Source: a virus
Lineage: Duplodnaviria > Heunggongvirae > Uroviricota > Caudoviricetes
Strand: one strand, 5' to 3'
DNA: 11,761 nucleotides
Virus record (IMG/VR): IMGVR_UViG_2630968911_000003
Coordinates: 1-11,761 of that record
Positions 489 through 1,232 of this stretch are shown here, piece after piece (position 1 is the first letter of the stretch; the number at the start of each line of letters is the position of its first letter). The notes under the pieces are model-generated. The model did not search any database. It was given only the letters and a program-made list of their open reading frames with translations, and was not told the DNA's origin. A program made the translations under genes and the position numbers.

Positions 489-1232
489 TTAGATTCCCTG
501 GTGAGTGAGAATTTTACTTTCTGAACTCCTCTGAGAGTATTGACTTGGAGAAACACCAAAATAACGTCTAAATACATAAGTAAAGTATGAGACACTGGCA
601 TAACCACAGACCTTAGCTACTTTACTAATAGGATAACAACGAGTGCTGAGTAAATATTCAGCCATTTGCATCCTCTCATCAAGTAGGATCTTACTGAATG
701 ATACCCCCTCTTCTTTCAATTTCCTCTTTAGTAAACTTTCGCTGAGATATAATCTTGATGATATATCCTTAAGATGCCATGGTGCAGATAAATCCGTATG
801 AATAATCGTTTTAACTTTAGCCCCTGTGCTTTTCAAACATCCAAACAGAAATACTCCAAATTGTTTTTCAGAAGAAAATGCAGAGAGACATGTAAAAGCA
901 ATAGACTCATCAAAAATTTCTATATATTCAGCACAGTGATTAGCCCAACTAATTAATCCTTTAATTAAACTGAAGTCAGCAAAGTTTATTTTTAAATAAG
1001 ATGGATATTCCCTACAATCAGAAATATCCCTTAAGTTATTAGCTTTCAAATAGCGACTAATAAACTCAGCGCCAAAATCCGCCACTATCACTCTTTCAGG
1101 ATATGTCAGGAAAAAATCTCTATAGCTAGAGTCGACAAGTACAGATAAACCTCTATCCAGAAACACACTCTCTTTTCCGAAATAAACATCAAAGGACTCC
1201 AAAATCAATATAACTGAACATGTAGTTGCCAT
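489..1232 (-). CDS. AraC/XylS-family transcriptional regulator, YdeO/AppY/GadX-like
   Basis: The C-terminal two-helix-turn-helix region 'WHLKDISSRLYLSESLLKRKLKEEGVSFSKILLDERMQMAEYLL...CGYASVSYFTYVFRRYFGVSPSQY' closely resembles my recollection of E. coli YdeO and relatives. The ORF track start at 1241 is GTG; the ATG at 1232 has a GGTGG ribosome-binding site 5 nt upstream, giving 247 aa. The gene is AT-rich. Confidence 0.8.
   Translation of the reverse strand: MATTCSVILILESFDVYFGKESVFLDRGLSVLVDSSYRDFFLTYPERVIVADFGAEFISRYLKANNLRDISDCREYPSYLKINFADFSLIKGLISWANHCAEYIEIFDESIAFTCLSAFSSEKQFGVFLFGCLKSTGAKVKTIIHTDLSAPWHLKDISSRLYLSESLLKRKLKEEGVSFSKILLDERMQMAEYLLSTRCYPISKVAKVCGYASVSYFTYVFRRYFGVSPSQYSQRSSESKILTHQGI

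Follow-up and report, generated by a model that had tools for sequence, protein, structure and literature searches.

[quoted passage not shown] 2012). According to the passages on PatE in that source, the protein lowers the expression of six LEE genes and activates gadB, gadC, gadE and hdeAB, the cis element in the hdeA promoter mapping to -132 to -45; for EDL933, a patE-null phenotype and a higher patE expression in stationary phase are reported in the literature reviewed there (PMC10877973). PsrA and PsrB (z1789 and z2104) of enterohaemorrhagic Escherichia coli (EHEC) are also phage-borne AraC-type activators, acting on gadE, yhiF and hdeA (PMC10877973), and PsrB is described in the same passages as binding the hdeA promoter element that is used by PatE. 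Both genes are reported beside effector and pch loci, unlike the gene studied here, to which they are likened by description only. PsrA and PsrB were sought in the Sakai prophages Sp6-Sp8, where tblastn on those loci returned no match.

AppY, an AraC regulator encoded by DLP12 of K-12, resembles the gene studied here in its location at the far end of the prophage, beyond tail-fibre remnants. AppY directly activates gadE and raises acid survival (PMC10057817), and activation of gadE has been published for PatE likewise. The control that AppY exerts over biofilm formation, RpoS stability and the hya and app operons has no reported equivalent in PatE. A first-pass annotation of this DNA likened the gene to appY at the DLP12 terminus, a comparison that holds by position, and by function as described in PMC10057817. 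The best-scoring characterised paralogues are YdeO, GadW and GadX, which are core AraC regulators of AR2 acid resistance. Their genes belong to the chromosomal core and occupy fixed loci, whereas patE is phage cargo.

The window, i.e. the whole stretch of DNA analysed, comprises 11,761 nucleotides of a tailed-phage record (IMGVR_UViG_2630968911_000003) and is identical to the chromosome of E. coli G4/9 (NZ_CP060073.1) apart from one inverted segment. While PatE was described in O157:H7 EHEC, the host here appears to be a commensal, as the strain comes from the faeces of a healthy person. The regulator gene is intact in the list of open reading frames and encodes 247 residues. Its ATG start at 1232 is preceded at 5 nt by the ribosome-binding site GGTGGA; translation starting instead at the in-frame GTG at 1241 would yield 250 residues. 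RefSeq lists an AraC family transcriptional regulator, WP_000246049.1, at the same coordinates of G4/9. The gene, its domains and its downstream side are as follows:

489..1232, minus strand: patE orthologue, AraC/XylS regulator of 247 aa (open reading frame, Pfam, identity to ECs_0287)
about residues 1-135 of the product: N-terminal regulatory/dimerisation domain
about residues 138-238 of the product: C-terminal double helix-turn-helix domain
220..447, plus strand: IS3-family transposase fragment (Pfam rve_3; partial ISEc48 in the Sakai annotation)
1..219, unstranded: prophage right arm beside the thrW att core (86.5% identical to the end of Sakai Sp1)

The closest characterised homologue of the protein is PatE, represented by ECs_0287 of prophage Sp1 in E. 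coli O157:H7 Sakai, with 242 of 247 residues identical (98%) in a gapless alignment. The five substitutions relative to Sakai are D26E, L29S, Y37S, H153R and L183I, two of them within or adjoining the DNA-binding domain. The likeness extends to the flanks. Both loci display the order pinE, GIY-YIG gene, regulator, IS3 fragment and thrW-type boundary, the serU fragment described below is part of both, and over the 3.3 kb that include both the IS3 fragment and pinE (positions 234-3525 of the window) the DNA is 96.4% identical to Sakai Sp1. The prophage bodies differ, and so does what lies next to them: in Sakai, the P4-like Sp2 comes after Sp1, while the prophage of the window directly abuts a yagP fragment. 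The exact window protein carries in a public source the name [quoted passage not shown], and ECs_0287 is the sole gene of Sakai Sp1 annotated as a transcription regulator of 247 aa. Sakai Sp1 is the counterpart of CP-933H, or O-island 8, of EDL933. We equate z0321 with ECs_0287 because of the CP-933H name, the single gene in Sp1 that matches in product and length, and the correspondence of O-island 8 with CP-933H.

The gene is placed in the PatE orthologue group by its near-identical full-length sequence and by the genomic module that it shares with Sp1 at one end of a lambdoid prophage integrated at thrW. It is very probable that the window gene is a PatE orthologue which acts on host acid-resistance genes as published for the O157:H7 protein. 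The gene is already known, and the reading given in the first-pass annotation is supported. Its placement of the regulator beside a prophage end is also borne out. The thrW att core falls just outside the window, to the left of position 1: the thrW 3' fragment lies at 19944-19999 of the locus L001, in which window position 1 corresponds to 20001. The distance between the end of patE and the thrW attachment core at the prophage boundary is 490 bp.

The protein has the C-terminal domain of ~100 aa with two helix-turn-helix motifs that characterises the AraC/XylS family. Residues 161-238 match Pfam HTH_AraC (2.2e-16, 59.9 bits, cut-off 26.6) and HTH_18 (1.1e-15, 58.1 bits, cut-off 33.6), and the top NCBIfam models are YdeO (3.6e-43) and GadX (2.8e-32). 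Against the K-12 paralogues, the full-length identity amounts to 35% for YdeO, 33% for GadW and 29% for AppY (E 5e-36), and the GadX alignment reaches 36% over the C-terminal 60% of the protein. The DNA-binding domains are closer, with 51% identity to YdeO, 49.5% to GadW and 45.5% to both AppY and GadX, in agreement with the initial proposal of a YdeO/AppY/GadX-like helix-turn-helix region (45-51% across the four). The N-terminal domain retains 16-24% identity to the core paralogues, with values of 15.6% for AppY and 15.9% for GadX. An N-terminal M..CSV motif is common to the window protein, YdeO and GadW and is absent from GadX; the helix SESLLK+KL is shared with YdeO and GadW, and reads SPSLLKKKL in GadX. 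Sequence comparison places the regulator in the AraC branch formed by YdeO, GadW, GadX and AppY.

Within this branch the protein appears as a separate member. Its score of 148 bits against the YdeO model NF007407 lies below the equivalog cut-off of 348, which together with the 35% identity marks YdeO as a paralogue. The match to the GadX model NF007432 (112 bits, cut-off 500) spans only residues 105-242. Orthology with AppY was rejected on the overall identity and that of the N-terminal domain, the likeness between the two being one of position and function.

Structural comparison points in the same direction for the DNA-binding part. Among solved structures, the DNA-binding domain of GadX gives the best sequence match (2.4e-24), and the corresponding modelled domain superposes on GadX 3mkl at 1.3-1.7 A. 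With 12 close homologues as input, AlphaFold gave a model with a mean pLDDT of 67 that is reliable in the DNA-binding domain only, the N-terminal and linker parts having pLDDT values of 33-74. The two-domain virulence regulators Rns, CsvR and ToxT are the sole full-length matches in the PDB by both structure and sequence, at 19-22% identity, and the window protein shares their architecture of a small beta-rich N-terminal domain, a helical linker and a double helix-turn-helix.

The relationship to AppY raises the question of the main targets. If the protein were an AppY-like regulator, the anaerobic and respiratory operons hya and cbdAB-appA would come first and acid resistance would be secondary. 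The homology to AppY does extend over the full length of the protein, the two genes occupy the same place at the far end of a lambdoid prophage, and AppY itself activates gadE (PMC10057817). The lysine K170 of AppY, which is needed for DNA binding (PMC10057817), aligns with K169 of the window protein and is conserved. However, by full-length identity and bit score AppY ranks last among the four core paralogues, its N-terminal domain is no closer than that of GadX, and the PatE regulon as set out in the reviewed passages consists of acid-resistance and LEE genes, with neither hya nor app among them (PMC10877973). We consider predominantly respiratory targets extremely unlikely. The suggestion that the regulator could rewire host acid resistance has a published basis in the 98%-identical PatE, whereas for its respiratory half we found nothing beyond the 29% identity to AppY.

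The composition of the locus was the second element of the first-pass annotation, which described the gene and ~760 bp upstream of it as strongly AT-rich. For the gene this is correct: the patE coding sequence has 34.7% GC (27% at third codon positions, GC3) compared to 47.7% for the window, and only 3.9% of 744-bp windows are as low in GC. The 760 bp upstream have a mean of 38.8% GC and are heterogeneous, and the description applies to the proximal 250 bp but not to the remainder, which is a mosaic of 42.1-65.2% GC. Moving away from the gene, the following features can be distinguished:

1233..1482, minus strand: AT-rich regulatory region of patE, 28.4% GC (composition; kept with patE in all loci examined)
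1266..1295, minus strand: predicted sigma-70 promoter of patE, TTGGCA-18-TATACT (consensus scan 10/12; 34 bp upstream of the ATG)
1483..1537, unstranded: end of an IS630-family element, 55-bp remnant, 52.7% GC (joint of patE DNA and serU-derived DNA)
1538..1815, minus strand: copy of the serU downstream flank, 278 bp, 42.1% GC (97% identity to K-12)
1816..1881, minus strand: 3' 66 nt of the tRNA-Ser(CGA) gene serU, 65.2% GC (alignment to K-12 serU)
1882-2055: phage DNA upstream of the divergent GIY-YIG gene, 32.2% GC (composition)

The succession of IS630 end, serU flank and tRNA-Ser fragment rules out that the 760 bp represent a single AT-rich acquired block. The IS630 remnant matches plasmid NZ_AP045065.1 at 93%, in a stretch that runs from the 3' end of an IS630-family transposase gene to 22 bp past it, and together with the IS3 remnant at 220-447 it brackets patE. 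A 67-aa open reading frame at 1482-1685 was discarded as spurious, being mostly serU-flank copy that continues through the IS630 remnant. Promoter-like sites in the consensus scan were not enriched over shuffled sequences. The composition would be compatible with control of patE by H-NS, for which 1233-1482 is a plausible target.

The outer part of the mosaic is best understood from the serU locus. The fragment at 1816-1881 displays a change of TT to GG in the T-loop and finds matches in 5423 of 5426 genomes, and homology to the serU flank ends at 1538 in essentially all E. coli genomes. ARAGORN finds no tRNA in this region, so the serU piece is a fragment. A scan of the whole window with Rfam at E <= 1 yielded just two matches, both sub-threshold; one of them, "Plastid-psbl-rps4" at 1819-1870 (31.8 bits, gathering threshold 68), was dismissed as an RNA element of its own, as it coincides with the tRNA-Ser fragment. 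Rather than a functional tRNA, the segment 1816..1881 represents the att core of a serU-type attR.

Strain MB15 harbors an intact prophage at serU whose right end resembles the window, with baseplate J, ymfQ, tail fibre, tfa, pinE and the GIY-YIG gene. In MB15, the tRNA fragment and the 278-bp flank run directly into yodB and zinT, and patE is absent. From this arrangement it follows that window positions 1538 to ~6809 correspond to the right end of a serU phage with its attR and host flank, and that patE lies beyond the attR of the serU phage. On its left side, the core is preceded in phages mEp332 and ev099 by 119 bp that match, at 91% identity, the P arm of a lambdoid prophage occupying serU in an O145:H28 strain. 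The upstream end of the patE cassette is a complete serU-type attR, made up of the P arm, a tRNA-Ser core of 62-66 nt and the 278-bp serU flank; a serU attR is therefore carried by viable phages that integrate elsewhere. The cassette itself, 234-1877, is common at 98% identity to prophages at argW and at the lambda attB and to phages mEp332 and ev099, and the outer boundary of the shared part, 1877, lies at the att core.

These junctions might reflect a capture by aberrant excision in the manner of lambda bio, in which a serU prophage took up an IS-bracketed patE that once lay downstream of serU, with lambdoid exchange spreading the cassette afterwards. We hold this origin, read from the arrangement of the junctions, to have about an even chance of being correct. 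The ancestral serU-patE arrangement was not seen among the ~50 native serU loci listed. To our knowledge, an origin of PatE by capture at serU has no earlier description.

At a threshold of at least 95% identity, patE is present in 654 of 5426 complete E. coli genomes (about 12%), and 656 records contain a match covering at least 80% of the gene. With this distribution and its place in the YdeO/GadX branch, it is neither a core-genome gene nor a member of an unrelated AraC subfamily, the two outcomes that would have spoken against the initial reading. In every locus sampled, patE is the terminal gene on the tail-fibre side of a lambdoid prophage or of a remnant of one. The carriers use the thrW site in the window strain G4/9 and in Sakai, argW in strain 673, and the lambda attB beside ybhB in strains PI7, APEC E19057 and TB4019. 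The isolated lambdoid phages mEp332, ev099 and PhiR70_1 encode the product at 96-97% identity, with a full-length match of 97.2% in PhiR70_1. In mEp332 and ev099, patE lies between tfa and int, and in ev099 this interval extends from the tail-fibre assembly gene to int-xis. The corresponding region of lambda is the dispensable b region. As in phage morons, the gene is packaged in temperate phages and variably present, and its own promoter is a predicted one.

Since patE occurs in ~12% of genomes, at several prophage sites and in viable lambdoid phages, it is accessory phage cargo, and it is under long-term purifying selection. The latter bears on the possibility that patE is a silent passenger, switched off (e.g. 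by H-NS) in a decayed prophage, of no use to this host and persisting by hitch-hiking. The prophage is indeed defective, with terL fused to a baseplate-gene fragment, IS elements, and head and tail genes missing, and the 28% GC of the promoter region is typical of H-NS-bound DNA. Among close patE alleles, dN/dS is 0.6-1.2 and thus near 1, a value resting on just 2-3 synonymous changes. In contrast, dN/dS against an 82%-identical relative is 0.18. The reading frame is intact in 8 of 8 sampled loci, those of the viable phages mEp332 and ev099 included, and there are the 656 records of at least 80% coverage. Remnants that have lost most phage functions still keep patE, and it is carried by viable phages. 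Moreover, the null phenotype and the rise of expression in stationary phase described for EDL933 in the reviewed passages (PMC10877973) point at an active gene. Silent carriage is, on this evidence, very unlikely.

Relatives of PatE are also found at another position in lambdoid prophages, between antiterminator Q and holin, where they comprise the 82%-identical relative (244 aa) and a 51%-identical family (243 aa). The loci in which they were located are:

L009, 8001-8732: PatE relative in the Q-holin interval of a lambdoid prophage
L012, 7967-8697: PatE relative in the Q-holin interval of a lambdoid prophage
L022, 7001-7735: PatE relative in the Q-holin interval of a lambdoid prophage

In L009-L012 the relatives are accompanied by a lipocalin gene and a YbgA-family gene. 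In Stx phages, the Q-holin interval is the site of the Stx genes.

The location of these relatives inside the late operon could hint at a regulator of phage genes, with patE controlling lysogeny, late or superinfection functions instead of host genes. The product also matches PHROG 1450 over its full length (7e-95), a family labelled "unknown function". Yet the Q-S interval and the b region are classic sites of non-essential conversion genes, patE persists in remnants devoid of most phage functions, and both the paralogues and the published targets are associated with host acid resistance. The probability of a phage-directed role is close to negligible. The evidence continues to favor PatE as a regulator of host acid-resistance genes.

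The remainder of the window displays further features of a composite prophage. The gene at 2056-2829 (plus strand) encodes a "LEM-3-like GIY-YIG" protein with a full-length PADLOC match to PD-T4-3 (E 2.4e-140), and it also matches PHROG 5356. PD-T4-3 is a single-gene anti-phage defence system. As the GIY-YIG gene is the last one before the serU-type attR, the prophage end carries a defence gene together with a regulator. Two tail-fibre assembly genes and alternative C-termini for the tail fibre lie in the segment 3506-5359 (1854 bp), which is inverted relative to G4/9. The segment is flanked by inverted repeats of 19 nt (3506-3524 and 5341-5359) and adjoins pinE at 2890-3444 (minus strand). 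This is a Pin-type invertible host-range switch in the other orientation, and the inversion relative to G4/9 indicates that the invertase is, or recently was, active in a defective prophage.

At ~6808/6809 (minus strand), terL (6808-8466) lacks its C-terminus and is fused to the 3' part of the baseplate J gene (6222-6809), resulting in an open reading frame of 562 aa. The fusion has the look of a joint, left by deletion or recombination, at which a DLP12-like lambdoid remnant meets the right end of a serU phage of the MB15 type. The DLP12-like remnant contains holin, RrrD, RzpD, Iss/Bor, HNH, terS and the truncated terL; all head genes and most tail genes are missing from the window prophage. 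The Iss/Bor lipoprotein gene at 9959-10252 (plus strand), "increased serum survival" in the G4/9 annotation, lies on the strand opposite to the lysis cassette essD, rrrD and rzpD and is a lambdoid conversion gene of the ordinary kind. The Rz1 gene, at 10343-10525, lies inside Rz.

Taken with the published work on PatE, these observations suggest the following mode of action. Transcription of patE would start from its own promoter within the 250-bp AT-rich upstream region, and the C-terminal double helix-turn-helix of PatE would bind promoters in the core acid-fitness island, namely those of hdeA and gadE. Activation there would raise GadE, the GadB/GadC glutamate decarboxylase system and the periplasmic chaperones HdeA and HdeB, which in turn would improve survival at low pH. 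[quoted passage not shown] The gene, which travels as a 1.6-kb cassette in the b region, a part of lambdoid phages that is not essential and lies between the tail-fibre genes and attP/int, is a lysogenic-conversion gene (moron) that would benefit the host. The present analysis establishes what the protein is, its domains and family, and the accessory, phage-borne distribution of its gene, to which the acid-resistance targets and phenotype would carry over from the literature on the 98%-identical O157:H7 protein.

PatE, PsrA, PsrB and AppY form an established set of AraC regulators that are carried by phages and feed into the core GAD/Hde circuit of acid resistance. The gene is not specific to EHEC, being found in roughly every eighth complete E. 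coli genome, in a faecal isolate from a healthy person and in viable lambdoid phages, and it moves as a compact IS-bracketed cassette. The serU attR embedded in this cassette is a modest new observation, and provides an unusually clear trace of how a phage may capture a regulator that benefits its host.
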